Shown piece after piece: positions 2,262-8,101 of a stretch of DNA of 12,400 bases. The stretch spans positions 1 through 12,400 of the forward strand of contig CAZBPC010000021.1 of assembly GCA_964493715.1 (NCBI GenBank), written 5' to 3'. Position 1 is the first letter of the stretch. Each line of letters starts with the position of its first letter. The position numbers were made by a program, and so were the translations under genes. Origin of the DNA: an uncultured archaeon. Lineage in GTDB: Archaea; Asgardarchaeota; Lokiarchaeia; Sigyniarchaeales; SOKP01. Under the pieces are notes generated by a model that was not told the DNA's origin, ran no database searches, and saw nothing but the letters and a program-made list of their open reading frames with translations.

Positions 2262-4121
2262 ATGTTTACGTTTAATTTTTTTATTGCAGAAAATAGAATG
2301 TTAACAGAATTAAAAGAATTATATGGAGCTAAATCTCTTGATGAAAAACAAGAGGATTTCCTCACAGAAGTCTTTAGAAAAATAATGAATACAGAATTTA
2401 AGAATGATACTTCAGGTGGACTTGATTTAATTGGATCTATTTATGAAAAGACGGTGGATTTCGAATATCGAAAAGTTTTGGGGGAGTTTTATACACCTAA
2501 AATTATTGTCAATCACATTTTAGAAAGTATTGGGTACACTTCATTAGAAAAAATACGATATAAAAAAATGATTGACATTAGCTGCGGAGCAGGAAGCTTT
2601 TTGATTGAATCTGCTAATTTTTTGAAGTCTTCACTATTGTCTAGTCAAGATAAAAAAATGTCTATAGAGCTAGCTAAAGAAATTATAAATGAGATCAGAA
2701 TGCATATTTATGGGATAGATTTAAATCCAATTGCTTGCATCCTCTGTCAATTGAATTTATTTCTTTCTGTATTTGATTTAATTAAAGTAATCTATCAAAA
2801 AGAACCAATGTATCAATTTAAATATTTCAATATTAAAAATATTAATACTTTATATCTCTCTAAGGAAGAAAAATATGATTTTGTAGTTGGAAATCCTCCA
2901 TATTTATTCATTAGAGAGATAAGTCATCAACATAGAAAACTGATCGAACAAAGTAATTTAGAGACGAATATCGGGCAATATGATTACTATCAAATTTTTA
3001 TTGAAATCGGTCTTAAAGTGTTAAAAACACATGGGTTATTAGGTTATATTATTCCTGATTCAATATTAGCACTTTCTAATCGCAAAATCATACGAAAATA
3101 TGTATATGAACATTCCTTGATTAAAGAGATAGGCGTGATTGGTTCCCAATTTAAAGATCCCGTTGTTTCTAATGTCATTTTAATCCTTGAAAAAGAGGAT
3201 AATGAAAACAAAAGAACGCATAATATCATTCAAATTATTGAGGGAAACGAGTTTAATCAGATTAAAAAAGAAATGAATCAAAGGTTGATTAAAAAATTTG
3301 ATTATAACTTTTTAGTAAATCTCTCTTCGGTTGACGTAAAGATTTTAGAATATTTAAACGAAAAATTCCCGAAACTTGCAGACTTACTAGCTGATGATCG
3401 TTTTGAGATAATTTTAAGTAGAGGAGTTGAACTTGGAAAAGATGGAAAAATAGTTTATTGTCACATTTGTCAGAAATATTTACCATTTCCTAAAAATGAA
3501 TTAATCTGCCCAGATTGTAAAAATTTCATTAAAAGTGAGACTATGGAATCAATTATTCATAAAGAATTACCCCTTAAAAAAGAATGGGAATATTCGCGAT
3601 TTCTTTATAGTATAAGTCGATACCAAATTAATGAAATAAAATATATTCAACTTAACAAGAACGGAATTAATTATAAGAATAAAAATATTTATAGTGATAG
3701 GATTATCATCCGACAATTAAACCAGAATAATTTAATATGTGCTACCTATGATTCTAATTCATATACATCACAATCATATTATAATTTGAAAATTGTAAAC
3801 TCGGATTTGAAGGAGTTCAATCACTATTATTTACTTGGTCTAATAAATTCACGTTTGCTCTCCTATTATTATAACAAGTCTTTTGGAGCTTACAAGAAAC
3901 TTTTTCCACGAATTCTAATTGAAAAAATAAGGAGCTTACCAATTAAAATCCCTCAAACAGACCAAGAAGTAAAAATTTCTATAGAAATAGTTAATAAAGT
4001 TAAAAAAGTACTCACTACACAAGATTTTAGGGATGATTTAGAAAAACAAATTGATTCACTTGTATTTGAGCTATATGAAATTTCTGATCTGAATAGGATT
4101 TATATTTCCCAGTGTTATTGA
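2262..4121 (+). CDS. N6-adenine DNA methyltransferase, gamma class (TaqI/Eco57I-like) with C-terminal target recognition domain; start may be ATG 2298
   Basis: GEFYTP, motif I DISCGAGSF, IYGIDLN, motif IV VVGNPPY, GLLGYIIP, and a TaqI_C-like C-terminus (RIIIRQ...YLLGLINSRLLSYYY...LPIK...IDSLVFELYEI). Confidence 0.93.
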   Translation: MFTFNFFIAENRMLTELKELYGAKSLDEKQEDFLTEVFRKIMNTEFKNDTSGGLDLIGSIYEKTVDFEYRKVLGEFYTPKIIVNHILESIGYTSLEKIRYKKMIDISCGAGSFLIESANFLKSSLLSSQDKKMSIELAKEIINEIRMHIYGIDLNPIACILCQLNLFLSVFDLIKVIYQKEPMYQFKYFNIKNINTLYLSKEEKYDFVVGNPPYLFIREISHQHRKLIEQSNLETNIGQYDYYQIFIEIGLKVLKTHGLLGYIIPDSILALSNRKIIRKYVYEHSLIKEIGVIGSQFKDPVVSNVILILEKEDNENKRTHNIIQIIEGNEFNQIKKEMNQRLIKKFDYNFLVNLSSVDVKILEYLNEKFPKLADLLADDRFEIILSRGVELGKDGKIVYCHICQKYLPFPKNELICPDCKNFIKSETMESIIHKELPLKKEWEYSRFLYSISRYQINEIKYIQLNKNGINYKNKNIYSDRIIIRQLNQNNLICATYDSNSYTSQSYYNLKIVNSDLKEFNHYYLLGLINSRLLSYYYNKSFGAYKKLFPRILIEKIRSLPIKIPQTDQEVKISIEIVNKVKKVLTTQDFRDDLEKQIDSLVFELYEISDLNRIYISQCY

Positions 4122-4704: not shown

Positions 4705-5682
4705 GTGGAAAATCTCCCGAATATCGATCTTTTAAAAAAAATACTTGAGAATTACATGTTCAACGTTGATGGAGCAGCCGCGGTTGCTATATGTGATCGA
4801 GATGGATTTATTATCGCATCTGAAAGTAAAATGAAGGATGAACAAAATACAGATTTGGTAATAGGAGCCATATCTGCTTTTTTAGATATCTACATCGATA
4901 GAATTAAATCCGAATACCAAACACAAAATAACTTTTTCAACATTACATCCATGGCAGATAGGAAGTTTGCCTATTGTAGCATGGGTCCGCATTCCATTTT
5001 AACTACAATAGCAGATCCAAATACACCAGACATTGAACTGAGAGTGTTTTCAGAGCATATTGCAGGAAAAATAGAGTTGCTGTTAGAAGGGTATGATGAT
5101 ATCTCTATAGAGATTCCTGAGATTATTAAGGTGTTATCAAAAACTCGATGGGGAAAATTACCAAAAGGAACTTTCACTTCAAAATTAATATTAACAGGAG
5201 ATTATCAAGTAGGAAAAACTTCACTTATAAAACGATTTGTTGAAAATAATTTTGTAGATGATTATATATCAACAATCGGTGTAGAGATTTCAAAAAAAAC
5301 CATTGTTTTGGGTGAAGAAACAACATTAAATTTTGTAATTTGGGATATTGGGGGTCAAAATCTCGCAATGACACCGTACAGAAAGCGATTTTATGAAGGG
5401 GCTAGTGGTGCGTTTATTGTCGTTGATCGAACCAGACCAAATAATTTCGTGAGCATAGATAATTGGTATGATGACATTAAAAAGTCTGTCCCCTCTAATA
5501 TCCCTTTAGTAATAGTAGGAAACAAGTCAGATTTAAAAGATGAACTTATATCATCTGAAGAAGATATTAAAGACATCTCAAAACAACATGGATTCCATTA
5601 TATTCTTACGAGTGCAAAAAGTGGAGAGAATGTCAACGAAGCCTTCCTATATATAGCTTACCGATTTATTGAGAAGGTTTAG
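4705..5682 (+). CDS. N-terminal Roadblock/LC7 (MglB-like) domain fused to a Rab-like small GTPase
   Basis: GTG start with GAGGG SD at 4694-4698. Roadblock pattern NVDGAAAVAICDRDGFIIAS...IGAISA. G-boxes: G1 GDYQVGKT, G2 YISTIG, G3 WDIGGQ, G4 NKSD, G5 TSAK. No C-terminal prenylation Cys. Confidence 0.93.
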   Translation: MENLPNIDLLKKILENYMFNVDGAAAVAICDRDGFIIASESKMKDEQNTDLVIGAISAFLDIYIDRIKSEYQTQNNFFNITSMADRKFAYCSMGPHSILTTIADPNTPDIELRVFSEHIAGKIELLLEGYDDISIEIPEIIKVLSKTRWGKLPKGTFTSKLILTGDYQVGKTSLIKRFVENNFVDDYISTIGVEISKKTIVLGEETTLNFVIWDIGGQNLAMTPYRKRFYEGASGAFIVVDRTRPNNFVSIDNWYDDIKKSVPSNIPLVIVGNKSDLKDELISSEEDIKDISKQHGFHYILTSAKSGENVNEAFLYIAYRFIEKV

Positions 5683-5683
5683 A

Positions 5684-5697
5684 CTTTTTTATTTTTT
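5684..5697 (+). terminator. Oligo-T tract, putative archaeal terminator
   Basis: CTTTTTTATTTTTT immediately after the TAG of the GTPase gene. Confidence 0.45.
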
Positions 5698-5781
5698 ACA
5701 ATAAACCAAATGTTTTTTTAGGTTTTTATTAATTTTATAATCAAATATTATCATTTTATATTAATTTATTAAATACAATTT

Positions 5782-5789
5782 AAGGAGGT
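5782..5789 (+). promoter_or_regulatory. Perfect Shine-Dalgarno AAGGAGGT, 9 nt before an in-frame ATA (5799)
   Basis: AAGGAGGT at 5782-5789 lies about 70 nt from the first in-frame TTG/ATG (5856/5859), but at canonical spacing from ATA 5799 in the same frame. Confidence 0.6.
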
Positions 5790-5798
5790 TTTTTAAAA

Positions 5799-5858
5799 AT
5801 AGTATTAAAAGTTAGTTTCAACGAAATTTTAGCGACTTGAAATACTGCGGGATACTTG
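5799..5858 (+). other. Putative 5' coding extension containing an in-frame TGA (5838-5840): (M)VLKVSFNEILAT-*-NTAGYL
   Basis: The frame is continuous with 5859..6728, the only stop is a TGA at codon 14, and a strong SD precedes it. Confidence 0.5.
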
Positions 5859-6728
5859 ATGGGCTTCTCAATAAAAGAAATAACATACATGAACAAGTAT
5901 ATACTCTATTTAACAGAACAAGAAATGGCAGGACCTTGGTTTAGTTTCAAATTAATTGGCAAAAATATTGGAACGCTTCCAGTGATTCTAAAGAACATCG
6001 AGCCTACACCCATATACAAGATGGTTAACACTCGAATTGGCACTTTTATTAACAGGATTACACTTGATTTTGATATTAAGGAATATTTGAAAAAACTAAT
6101 GAAGGAAGACAAAATAACCAGACAAGAATTTAAGAAAGAACATTCTTTGATAAGACTTTATATCGATATATTTAATAAACCAAAAATTCCTTACATTAAC
6201 ACTTTCTTCACGCTGAAAAATATATCTGACTATAATTTAACAGAATTTTCGATGTATTTTGTGTTTGACTTTGATATCAATGGATTAGATGGTTTCGATA
6301 ATGATGATTCAGACTATGATGAAAAAAACGACATATTATATCAATATGATAAAACTGGGCTTCATGCTGGATTTTCTCCGATCTCAAAATCAACGAATTA
6401 TGAGACTTGTCTAACTAAAGATTTTCATATAAATAATGATAAATTAGATCTTTCAAATACACTTTATGGAGAACCGGGAGAAATTTTATCCGCTTTGCAA
6501 ATCAAATTTAAAACTTTGGAACCAGATCAATCCTTCCAAACAGCTTTAGTCATTTCAGGTGGACTTAGCAAAGAAGAATTAATTGAAAATATAATTATCG
6601 GTAAAAATAACGCAATGAAATATTTATCACAAGTGAATAGGTCAGTTAAGTCAGAACAAAGAAACAAGCAAGAAGAAGCTTTCAACAAGATAAATTCGTT
6701 TGAATCGATTGATTGTAACAAAGAGTAA
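5859..6728 (+). CDS. Uncharacterised beta-rich protein, loosely resembling the N-terminal super-sandwich domains of GH15-type proteins; true start possibly 5799 via UGA recoding
   Basis: Long ORF (289 aa from ATG 5859). The pattern FTLKNIS...SMYFVFDFDING...DYDEKNDILYQYD...SALQIKFKTLEPDQSFQTALVISGGLSKEEL suggests a mutarotase-like sandwich. The fold call is inference; no catalytic (alpha/alpha)6 barrel follows. Confidence 0.8.
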   Translation: MGFSIKEITYMNKYILYLTEQEMAGPWFSFKLIGKNIGTLPVILKNIEPTPIYKMVNTRIGTFINRITLDFDIKEYLKKLMKEDKITRQEFKKEHSLIRLYIDIFNKPKIPYINTFFTLKNISDYNLTEFSMYFVFDFDINGLDGFDNDDSDYDEKNDILYQYDKTGLHAGFSPISKSTNYETCLTKDFHINNDKLDLSNTLYGEPGEILSALQIKFKTLEPDQSFQTALVISGGLSKEELIENIIIGKNNAMKYLSQVNRSVKSEQRNKQEEAFNKINSFESIDCNKE

Positions 6729-6769
6729 ATCTAATTTGATGATTCAAATAAAAAAACCATTTGGGGAAG

Positions 6770-6823
6770 TTATTTGATGAGATACTCTGCGAGAGTATAG
6801 ATTTATTGCATTGGGTCAAATAA
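6770..6823 (+). promoter_or_regulatory. Structured 3'-UTR stem-loop with AUGA...GA core (SECIS/K-turn-like candidate)
   Basis: Outer helix TTATTTGA (6770-6777) / TCAAATAA (6816-6823). ATGA at 6777-6780. Perfect inner helix ATACTCT (6782-6788) / AGAGTAT (6792-6798). GA at 6800-6801 sits in register opposite the 5' GA. Confidence 0.4.
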
Positions 6824-6875
6824 AATTAATATGTAATTTAATTACTATCTTTAAAAATAGGAATAAGTAGCAAAT

Positions 6876-7967
6876 TCACATTATTTGTTGAAAATTTCCT
6901 ATGATTCTTAATTTACCATTAAATTTATTGAGCTCTGTAATAATACCTTTGAGACCAGTCCCATCATGGTAAAGCTTTTTATCAAATTGAATAAATACAT
7001 TTCCTGATGCTCCAGGTTTAATTTCATCTCCAGATTTCAATTTTAATGGAGAGATTTTAAGGTCTACCATCCCAAAATATTGAATACCATCAGAAGGTTT
7101 TACAACACCTCCATTAGGAACATAAAATTTATTAATATGGACTATTGCATTTATTTTTTTTTCATTTACAAATTTGCCTTGACTCGCAATTATATTGTTG
7201 CGATCCACATCTTCAGGTGAAATATTTCCTTTAAGAGCTAAACCAACTCTATCTCCTACTTGAGCGGTTTTAAACATCCTATCTTGTTTTTGAATGCTTC
7301 GAATAATGACTTTTTTGTTCATATCCTCGTAACCGATAATTTCTACCATTTGCCCTGCATAAATCTCTCCCTCTTTAACTACACCTAATATTACTGTTCC
7401 AATTCCTTTCACGGGGAAAGCATGATCAATTAGCACTTTCGTACTTGAATTATTTATGATTTCCTTGGTTTCAGAGCCTAAATCAATAATCTTCATTTTC
7501 AACTTTTCATAATCTTCTTTGTGCTTTATTTCAATGATATCCGTATCATCAAGGCTAGTTGTTTTTAGGATGGTTATGAGTTTTGCTTTAATTTCAGGTA
7601 ATTTCCACTCCGTCTTGGAGTTAATCCCATCAATAATTGCTAAAACTTTGGTGTTAAAAAGGGTGTGATATAAATCTAAACCAACCAGAATTTCTCCGAT
7701 TGTTGCATTCAATCCATTTTCAAGATCTATTACTAAAATATGGATATTGGAGATTGATAATGCTTGTAAAAATGGTTTAATTTTCTCAGGATAATCAACG
7801 GGAGTTATAGCACAAAAAACATGGTTTAAGGTTGAATCTAAACGATTAAAAAAAAGGAGATCACTCTTTGTATCAGGAGCGCCTAGAGATTGCCCAACTA
7901 ATTGCCTTAATTCGAAATTGTCTCCAAAAATTCCCACGACGAAATTTTTTTCATCAACCTGACTCAT
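6876..7967 (-). CDS. Archaeal SelB-like protein (aSelBL; EF-Tu/SelB domains II-III with a degenerate G domain)
   Basis: Domain II motifs VLIDHAFPVKGIGTVILGVVKEG, IRSIQKQD and GDRVGLALKG. The N-terminal VVGIFG...DYPEKIKPFLQAL region lacks GxxxxGKS/T, DxPG and NKxD, as in aSelBL. Start placed at ATG 7967 (MSQVDEK) because the 39 upstream codons look non-coding. Confidence 0.85.
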   Translation of the reverse strand: MSQVDEKNFVVGIFGDNFELRQLVGQSLGAPDTKSDLLFFNRLDSTLNHVFCAITPVDYPEKIKPFLQALSISNIHILVIDLENGLNATIGEILVGLDLYHTLFNTKVLAIIDGINSKTEWKLPEIKAKLITILKTTSLDDTDIIEIKHKEDYEKLKMKIIDLGSETKEIINNSSTKVLIDHAFPVKGIGTVILGVVKEGEIYAGQMVEIIGYEDMNKKVIIRSIQKQDRMFKTAQVGDRVGLALKGNISPEDVDRNNIIASQGKFVNEKKINAIVHINKFYVPNGGVVKPSDGIQYFGMVDLKISPLKLKSGDEIKPGASGNVFIQFDKKLYHDGTGLKGIITELNKFNGKLRIIGNFQQIM

Positions 7968-8101
7968 CGATAAATAGAACAATCTATATAAGAAATATTT
8001 TTTGGTTTCACTTCTTGAGCTATGATAGTACTTTGATTGATAAAAAATAAAATGAATCATCAAAAAAAATGGTTTTTTTACCATGATGAATATTACTAAT
8101 A

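Follow-up and report, generated by a model that had tools for sequence, protein, structure and literature searches.

The window analysed here is a stretch of 12,400 nucleotides (nt) from an uncultured Asgard archaeon, contig C21 of a 160-contig, 3.68-Mb genome (G000), and the gene at 5799-6728 on its forward strand is, with high confidence, a genuine selenoprotein gene. It encodes 309 residues up to a TAA stop codon at 6726-6728, an assignment based on read-through translation, conservation and an AlphaFold2 model, and it represents a new selenoprotein family that uses a known recoding system. In the proposed mechanism, ribosomes would be placed by the Shine-Dalgarno (SD) sequence AAGGAGGT at 5782-5789 and would initiate at the near-cognate codon ATA (AUA) at 5799-5801, and the UGA at codon 14 (5838-5840) would be decoded as selenocysteine (Sec) via the archaeal/eukaryal-type tRNA-Sec, PSTK, SepSecS, SelD and SelB. 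The signal for decoding would be a selenocysteine insertion sequence (SECIS) about 900 nt further downstream, at 6739-6780, with an AUGA...GA core of the kink-turn type, a nine-position stem and an A-rich apical loop holding a ministem. Actual Sec insertion at codon 14 is deduced from comparisons among sequences, and the arrangement is far beyond chance because dozens of independent assemblies show the same TGA, ATA and SD spacing.

An in-frame TGA at codon 14

The SD, read directly from the sequence, is separated from the ATA by 9 nt, and an in-frame TAA lies upstream at 5781-5783 with no ATG, GTG or TTG from there to the ATA. In the frame set by the ATA, the TGA at codon 14 is the sole interruption, and translation through it yields the 309-residue product opening IVLKVSFNEILAT-X-NTAGYLMGFSIKEITYMNK. 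An earlier reading of the window, made from sequence only, had described this arrangement and the length of the product correctly, and had also stated that TGA terminates two other genes, which are the open reading frame (ORF) 2262..4121 (tga 4119-4121) and the minus-strand ORF 6876..8084 (tca 6876-6878). The ORF listing of the window gives only a 290-codon ORF from TTG 5856 for this gene, and public annotations start at the ATG of codon 21 (5859-5861), which is judged from database lengths and coding constraint to be an internal Met here.

The sequence-only reading had proposed a comparison of orthologues at position 14, in which the TGA proves to be retained, with Cys in distant homologues and conserved upstream residues whose codons vary synonymously. 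A search with the read-through protein against 60 related genomes matched 46, including 32 of 35 from the same genus, and all 33 same-genus rows (G000 included) contain exactly one TGA, at 67-100% identity and with alignments that begin at residue 1 or 2. Base-by-base reading of 28 same-genus loci gives 26 distinct N-terminal sequences, all of which have the TGA, and nearly every codon flanking it varies synonymously. Columns with variation at the first, second and third codon positions number 7, 4 and 12 of 12 in codons 2-13, and 3, 1 and 6 of 6 in codons 15-20, which run from the TGA to the annotated ATG. Leu20 is spelled TTG, TTA, CTT, CTG or CTA, so the TTG at 5856 is no conserved start. 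Across the nine genera of the window's own taxonomic family (f1), a single TGA is present in 60 of 62 matched genomes, and in the distant family f12 one TGA is present in 65 of the 66 rows that cover the N-terminus.

The TGA column is paired with cysteine in more distant homologues. Those from family f2 (n = 9, 21-29% identity) have no stop and carry TGT or TGC in this column, where it forms the second Cys of a CxxC motif, and one f12 homologue (genome G308) reads ECSSCG with Cys at the Sec position. Three f4 homologues read C-x-x-TGA (CxxU) and genus g20 of the window's own family also has CxxU; f21 reads L-C-S-K-TGA (LCSKU), and the f12 form, of 268 residues, contains E-C-x-x-TGA-G. The ancestral N-terminal motif of the family is CxxU/CxxC, with LxxU in the window's own genus. 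Trp was found at the TGA position in none of the homologues examined. SepSecS scores over its cut-off in 17 of 20 genomes tested, Sec-form and Cys-form alike, and was found in all nine Cys-form f2 genomes (over the cut-off in eight). Loss of the Sec trait was therefore rejected as an explanation of the Cys forms, since genomes with either form have SepSecS.

A competing account of the same codons takes the first 13 as a conserved leader peptide ending at the UGA, with the protein re-initiating at AUG 5859 and containing no Sec. It is favoured by the ATG of codon 21, which follows the TGA after 18 nt and is invariant in all 26 distinct same-genus sequences, and by the public annotations, where the best 120 of 390 homologues start at Met21. 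Two genomes of genus g18 (loci L119, G303:C161, and L120, G285:C29) also speak for it, as they retain the downstream ORF and the SECIS intact despite a split TGA, so that a Sec-less product from Met21 may be viable. Such a leader is nevertheless very unlikely: codons 15-20 are constrained as protein in frame, and the supposed leader, the TGA and the residues that follow align residue by residue with the uninterrupted N-termini of the Cys forms. In addition, residues 3-6, 11-13 and 20-23 are strands of the sandwich in the AlphaFold2 model, and a covarying SECIS stands right after the stop codon, as in the known selenoprotein genes of this genome. The codon-21 position is Phe or Arg in other families.

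The split in the two g18 genomes is caused by a hairpin insertion of 31 nt or 28 nt within the Sec codon (T|GA). Each insertion is of length 3n+1, without it the frame and the TGA are whole again, and compensatory changes distinguish the two stems. A repeat was rejected because each genome has a single copy; the insertion could be a small bulge-helix-type mRNA intron, or it could mean that the Met21 form is sufficient. As a separate matter, the invariant ATG at 5859-5861 could permit a Sec-independent product by re-initiation alongside the selenoprotein.

The 3′ SECIS element and the selenocysteine machinery

The Lokiarchaeal eukaryote-like SECIS (6739-6780, forward strand), delimited by alignment, covariation and a genome pattern scan, begins 10 nt past the stop codon with ATGA (6739-6742), which is followed by one unpaired base, an 8-bp stem (6744-6751/6770-6777), a further unpaired base and GA (6779-6780). 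The apical loop (6752-6769) has 18 nt, starts with AAAAA, ends with AG and encloses a small variable ministem. The whole conserved structure of the 3′-untranslated region (3′UTR) extends over 6729-6802 on the same strand, where an outer helix (6729-6732/6799-6802) encloses the SECIS together with a second hairpin (6782-6798). The sequence-only reading had placed an AUGA...GA stem-loop further downstream; the ATGA at 6777-6780 and the 7-bp hairpin at 6782-6798 do exist, but this hairpin is not the SECIS and was mis-parsed, because the conserved element starts at ATGA 6739-6742 and the GA at 6779-6780 is its 3′ core half.

In the 28 same-genus genes, the 3′UTRs are conserved over about 85 nt, and RNAalifold recovers the 8-bp stem, which is paired in 100% of cells and shows compensatory changes in four of its eight pairs, with AA/UU replaced by GG/CC in L008 and by UU/AA in L022. 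Compensatory changes also affect two of the four pairs of the outer helix, and in the second hairpin the core reaches 98.8% pairing. For the full structure, with outer helix and second hairpin, 96.9% of cells are paired as compared with 32-49% for slid partners, and its six pairs with double changes were matched by none of 500 shuffles; these controls overstate the support for the SECIS somewhat, because the sequences are related. Other genera of f1 keep the element with compensatory changes of their own, such as UCAAUUA/UAAUUGA in L114.

A strict pattern for the Lokiarchaeal type of SECIS (lokiSECIS) finds six sites in the 3.68-Mb genome, one of which is 6739-6780, and zero or one site in each of ten first-order Markov control genomes, two in total. 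The other five sites in the genome lie behind two VhuD-like genes with two TGAs, the large subunit of a NiFe-hydrogenase and two further TGA-containing ORFs. The lokiSECIS, in the passages devoted to it by Mariotti et al. (2016, PMC4989117), consists of AUGA, a 9-bp stem, a loop of the form As...AG and then GA. The element at 6739-6780 fits this description except for loop length, and it is a variant of the published lokiSECIS because its apical loop is longer (18 nt as against 11 nt at the five other sites).

The 3′ ends of genes in other families take different forms. All seven f12 genes examined (L102-L106, L109 and L110) end in ..A-TGA, which places the stop codon within AUGA, and this is followed by a stem, a loop that opens with GUAAAGC or a close variant, the second strand of the stem and GA. 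From its sequence, the f12 SECIS core thus appears to overlap the stop codon, and even in L110, the one Cys-form gene, a similar hairpin is present. Hairpins at the 3′ end of the f4 homologues were matched to no SECIS type. The family adds natural variants to the eukaryote-like archaeal SECIS, among them a long-loop type and an AUGA core of a sister family that contains the gene's own stop codon.

The Sec machinery, which the sequence-only reading had proposed to look for in the genome, is represented by tRNA-Sec, SelD and SepSecS, and by SelB-like and PSTK-like genes below their cut-offs. The tRNA-Sec gene (C26:15797-15885) scores 59 bits against a cut-off of 47 and is classified by ARAGORN as SeC(tca), and SepSecS, 76 nt beyond it, scores 476 bits and passes its cut-off. 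The SelB-like gene lies on the same contig, so that it, tRNA-Sec and SepSecS are found together within about 5.5 kb (C26:11835-17262). Two SelD genes (C18:41744-42781 and 43545-44573, forward strand) are about 760 nt apart and each contains one TGA (..GU(N/S)CK..). Each of them also has a SECIS-like element 8 nt past its stop codon, in which the stem is shorter and a ministem sits within a long loop.

Several observations weigh against the selenoprotein assignment, in addition to the invariant Met21 and the intact genes with a split TGA. The SelB-like gene reaches 231 bits against a cut-off of 242 and the PSTK-like gene 169 bits against 290, for models that were built on other lineages. At the 3′ end, a search of 5600-7000 with Rfam, admitting matches to E 10, found no SECIS family and only three chance matches (snoR29, mir-1824 and a plastid UTR), the minimum free energy fold of the 3′UTR is thermodynamically unexceptional (z = -1.44), the main stem owes its compensatory changes to L008 and L022 only, and the apical loop departs in length from those at the five other sites. 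At the protein level, the window's own genus lacks the first Cys of CxxU, and f12 and f21 are without the otherwise invariant Cys near the C-terminus. To these are added that initiation at the AUA is something we infer, and that no RNA run is among those listed by a sequencing-run search for the locus, by which the organism occurs in salt-marsh sediments.

The silence of the Rfam SECIS models would also suit a second alternative that involves no Sec, in which ribosomes pass the UGA with a near-cognate tRNA for Trp or Cys or through another kind of context-dependent suppression. Even less credence is given to this than to a leader peptide, as the genome has a full Sec system, Cys, which is the usual counterpart of Sec, occupies the homologous position, the lokiSECIS signature otherwise stands behind VhuD-like and hydrogenase genes, and TGA ends the neighbouring genes. 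Decay of the 5′ end or an assembly error, which the sequence-only reading had raised because ATG>ATA and TGG>TGA would both be G>A changes, has next to no probability, as does a sequencing error, since the same ATA and TGA occur with synonymously differing flanks in dozens of independently assembled genomes, no examined homologue has Trp, and contigs from four other metagenome runs span 5650-6900 with no variant at 5799-5801 or 5838-5840 and only synonymous variants nearby (5805, 5822 and 5849). Taken together, the retained TGA, its pairing with Cys, the coding constraint around it, the SECIS and the machinery argue for a selenoprotein.

Start codon and predicted fold

The first codon is ATA in 25 of 27 same-genus loci, ATC in one and, in L037, an ATT one codon later. 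GGAGG stands 10-12 nt ahead of the start in 26 of the 27, is found 5 nt before the codon preceding ATT in L037, and occurs in other f1 genera as well. No canonical in-frame start lies between the upstream stop and the ATA-position codon in 22 of these loci, and the upstream stop is only one codon away in 10 of the 27; five closely related loci have a TTG 15 codons upstream, before the SD. Among the other genera of f1, g18, g19, g21, g22, g24 and g25 have ATA, g23 has ATG and g20 has GTG. Starts in f2, f4, f12 and f21 are ATG or GTG, and the f2 Cys forms have an ATG aligned exactly with the ATA, one of them with a TTG a codon later. By this comparison the ATA appears to be conserved as the start in at least six genera and not to be, as the sequence-only reading had considered, the mutated ATG of one genome, and AUA initiation at 5799 is very likely.

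A genome-wide screen for AUH starts (AUA, AUC or AUU) behind GGAGG(T) returned few candidates. One is an ABC-2 permease gene (C108:602-1822, reverse strand; loci L062-L073) with the arrangement GGAGGT-7 nt-ATC, whose orthologues have ATA, ATC or ATT at the start, and ATG in two, and whose conserved residues precede the first canonical start. Because this permease family shows AUH starts too, AUH initiation looks like a property of the lineage and not a defect of a single gene. A further candidate AUH start belongs to an MscS-like ORF at C52:18257 (GGAGGT-8 nt-ATA). No report of AUA starts in archaea was found in the portions of the literature covered, and the gene would provide a clean, conserved case of AUA/AUC/AUU initiation in this domain.

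The AlphaFold2 model, run on a 26-row alignment, has a predicted local distance difference test (pLDDT) score of 86.5 and a predicted template modelling (pTM) score of 0.86, and consists of about 19 strands followed by helices at 258-300. Its confidence is lower at residues 1-20 (62-66) and in the last ten. Foldseek returns 74 matches in the PDB with E <= 0.001, led by the N-domains of the glycoside hydrolase (GH) families GH94, GH116 and GH15 and galactose mutarotase (GalM), and the best match is 8ho7_A (E 2.5e-8, template modelling (TM) score 0.51 over the query). The protein is thus predicted to be a stand-alone galactose-mutarotase-like β-supersandwich with C-terminal helices, and the guess of a β-sandwich made in the sequence-only reading is borne out by the model and by Foldseek. 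A thioredoxin-fold CxxC/CxxU oxidoreductase was rejected, since the model is nearly all β with C-terminal helices and its matches are supersandwiches. As a predicted supersandwich, the family would extend Sec-bearing folds beyond thioredoxin-like and metalloenzyme folds.

At the sequence level, Pfam and NCBIfam give nothing meaningful for the protein, ten distant relatives or the members of the alignment, and the Pfam supersandwich models match none of 26 family members at E <= 1. A PDB profile search gave one chance match (LptE, E 0.085), and the Atlas a weak, sub-threshold lead to a GH94 supersandwich cluster (score 0.81). Residues invariant in the Lokiarchaeial lineages include U/C14, K26, N77, R86, T88, D123, N141, D157-F-D159, D169, Q182, R288 and C306. 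The CxxU/CxxC motif, the invariant polar residues and an acidic DFD...D...YD loop together suggest a redox-active ligand-binding protein or enzyme, and the product is most likely a selenol-based redox protein, enzyme or sensor.

Family range, neighbouring genes and known systems

A family profile searched over 299 genomes sampled from the phylum matched 130, comprising 61 of 66 in f1 (nine genera), five of seven in f2, 58 of 76 in f12 and all five in f21, and the same search did not find the family in the other 26 families sampled. Database relatives are labelled Lokiarchaeota or Promethearchaeota, and only 32 clusters at E 0.001 or better occur among 1.84 billion representatives. An ESM Atlas search with a Cys-form homologue gave only unnamed Asgard clusters and sub-threshold named leads, and the family has so far been seen only in Asgard archaea. 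Of 390 homologues in the database, the best 120 are entries of 234-289 residues, unnamed or labelled 'hypothetical protein', with at most 94% query coverage; from this short length and coverage, these entries begin at Met21 and miss the first 20 residues, including Sec. With no named domain, 130 of 299 genomes and these shortened entries, the family emerges as a widespread lineage-specific selenoprotein that is routinely missed by annotation.

In the sections of Huang et al. (2024, PMC11227280) that describe the survey, more than 400 Asgard genomes were searched with known selenoprotein families only, and seven families are given, namely SelD, FrhA/VhuU, HdrA, FrhD/VhuD, Prx-like, AhpF-N and DsbA-like. 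The corresponding passages of Mariotti et al. (2016, PMC4989117) and Sun et al. (2021) give subsets of these seven. The window family matches none of the seven so published (Pfam 0, NCBIfam 0 and the PDB chance match already mentioned), and the terms mutarotase, sandwich and GTPase were not found in the text and table passages of a 2026 review (PMC13188914). A prior description of the family was likewise not found in the literature searched, although supplementary tables might list extra candidates. It is rated as new because no such family was found in the censuses listing seven families or in the literature searched, and the suggestion of a new selenoprotein family in the sequence-only reading is upheld to that extent.

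Two further candidate families occur in the same genome. A 154-residue ORF at C4:10807-11268 (reverse strand; L079/L080) contains two adjacent in-frame TGAs (..HAD-TGA-TGA-ADNF..) and has a textbook lokiSECIS 9 nt past its stop codon. Both TGAs are kept in all 35 matches, which come from 24 of 31 related genomes and four families, down to 23% identity; the f4 forms read G-C-U-U-H and have 3′UTRs that look different. Neither Pfam nor NCBIfam assigns this ORF to a family, its start seems to be an ATT or ATA that follows GGTGA, and it is a candidate for a further unlisted selenoprotein family with a Sec-Sec pair. The second candidate, at C14:11102-11293 (forward strand; L078/L092), is a predicted membrane protein of 64 residues (..DDGGG-TGA-GCF..) with a lokiSECIS just past the stop codon; it matches in 6 of 31 related genomes, each time with one TGA, and no family could be assigned to it. 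Asgard selenoproteomes are probably under-counted, because one genome yields two more candidate families.

The genes around the selenoprotein gene encode an N6 DNA methyltransferase, a Roadblock and Ras GTPase, an EF-Tu/SelB-like protein, a phosphodiesterase-family protein and a GH38 mannosidase. Directly upstream on the same strand (4705-5682) lies the Roadblock and Ras-family small GTPase (Pfam Ras 2.5e-37, with a weak MAPKK1_Int match), which holds this position in 26 of 28 same-genus loci, in four of four other f1 genera and in eight of nine f2 Cys-form loci, the ninth being without upstream sequence. From this gene order, the sandwich protein may work with the GTPase within its own order. 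Its absence upstream in f4 (0/3), f12 (0/5) and f21 (0/1) weighs against such a partnership, and a complex prediction for the two proteins scored 0.00, which counts neither for nor against binding. The convergent gene downstream (6876-8084, reverse strand) encodes an EF-Tu/SelB-like paralogue of 402 residues that matches the NCBIfam selB model over positions 64-262 with 78.5 bits (cut-off 242); Pfam sees only EF-Tu domain 2 in it and no intact GTPase domain, and it is distinct from the SelB candidate on C26. It was rejected as a partner, as the adjacency is kept only in close relatives.

A joint reading of these observations would make the protein an Asgard-specific CxxU supersandwich selenoprotein that acts as a redox- or selenium-sensing partner of a Roadblock-Ras (Rag-like) GTPase, with the 5′ end of its gene as a translational switch, in a genus that uses AUH starts elsewhere and holds further unlisted selenoprotein families, one of them with an adjacent Sec pair. 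As a whole this combination is improbable, with perhaps a small chance of holding in every part. If the switch were real, the weak AUA, the UGA at codon 14 and the AUG at codon 21 would give the full Sec protein in the presence of Sec-tRNA and the Met21 form in its absence.

Elements of the gene can be set beside known systems. Near-cognate AUU, AUA and AUC starts exist in bacteria, for example the AUU of E. coli infC, and ATT, ATC and ATA are given as rare starts in NCBI table 11. The present gene resembles these cases in that an AUH codon stands at proper SD spacing where relatives have AUG, and differs in being archaeal and in the conservation of the codon over at least six genera. With GH94 cellobiose phosphorylase, GH116, GH15 glucoamylase and galactose mutarotase, the protein shares the overall fold (Foldseek E 2.5e-8 to 5e-5, TM 0.36-0.55 over the query); unlike them, it is a stand-alone protein of 309 residues without a catalytic (α/α)6 domain, and its family has the N-terminal CxxU/CxxC and C-terminal helices and no sequence membership in theirs.

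The passages of the review PMC13188914 on motif types link CxxU/UxxC to redox function, and the bacterial selenoproteins with these motifs are mostly of thioredoxin fold. The window family is like these in its CxxU in f4, f12, f21 and g20 and its CxxC in the Cys forms, and unlike them in the predicted β-sandwich fold and in the LxxU of the window protein. The closest comparison is with the Lokiarchaeal selenoprotein genes (VhuD/FrhD, HdrA, VhuU/FrhA, Prx-like and SelD), which have the same in-frame UGA with Cys homologues, a SECIS within about 10 nt of the stop codon, the AUGA core, nine-position stem, As...AG loop and 3′ GA, and the same machinery. The window gene differs from them in its unrelated protein family, whose predicted fold is not thioredoxin-like and which is no hydrogenase or Hdr subunit, in its 18-nt loop with ministem as against 11 nt, in the position of Sec at residue 14 and in its AUA start.

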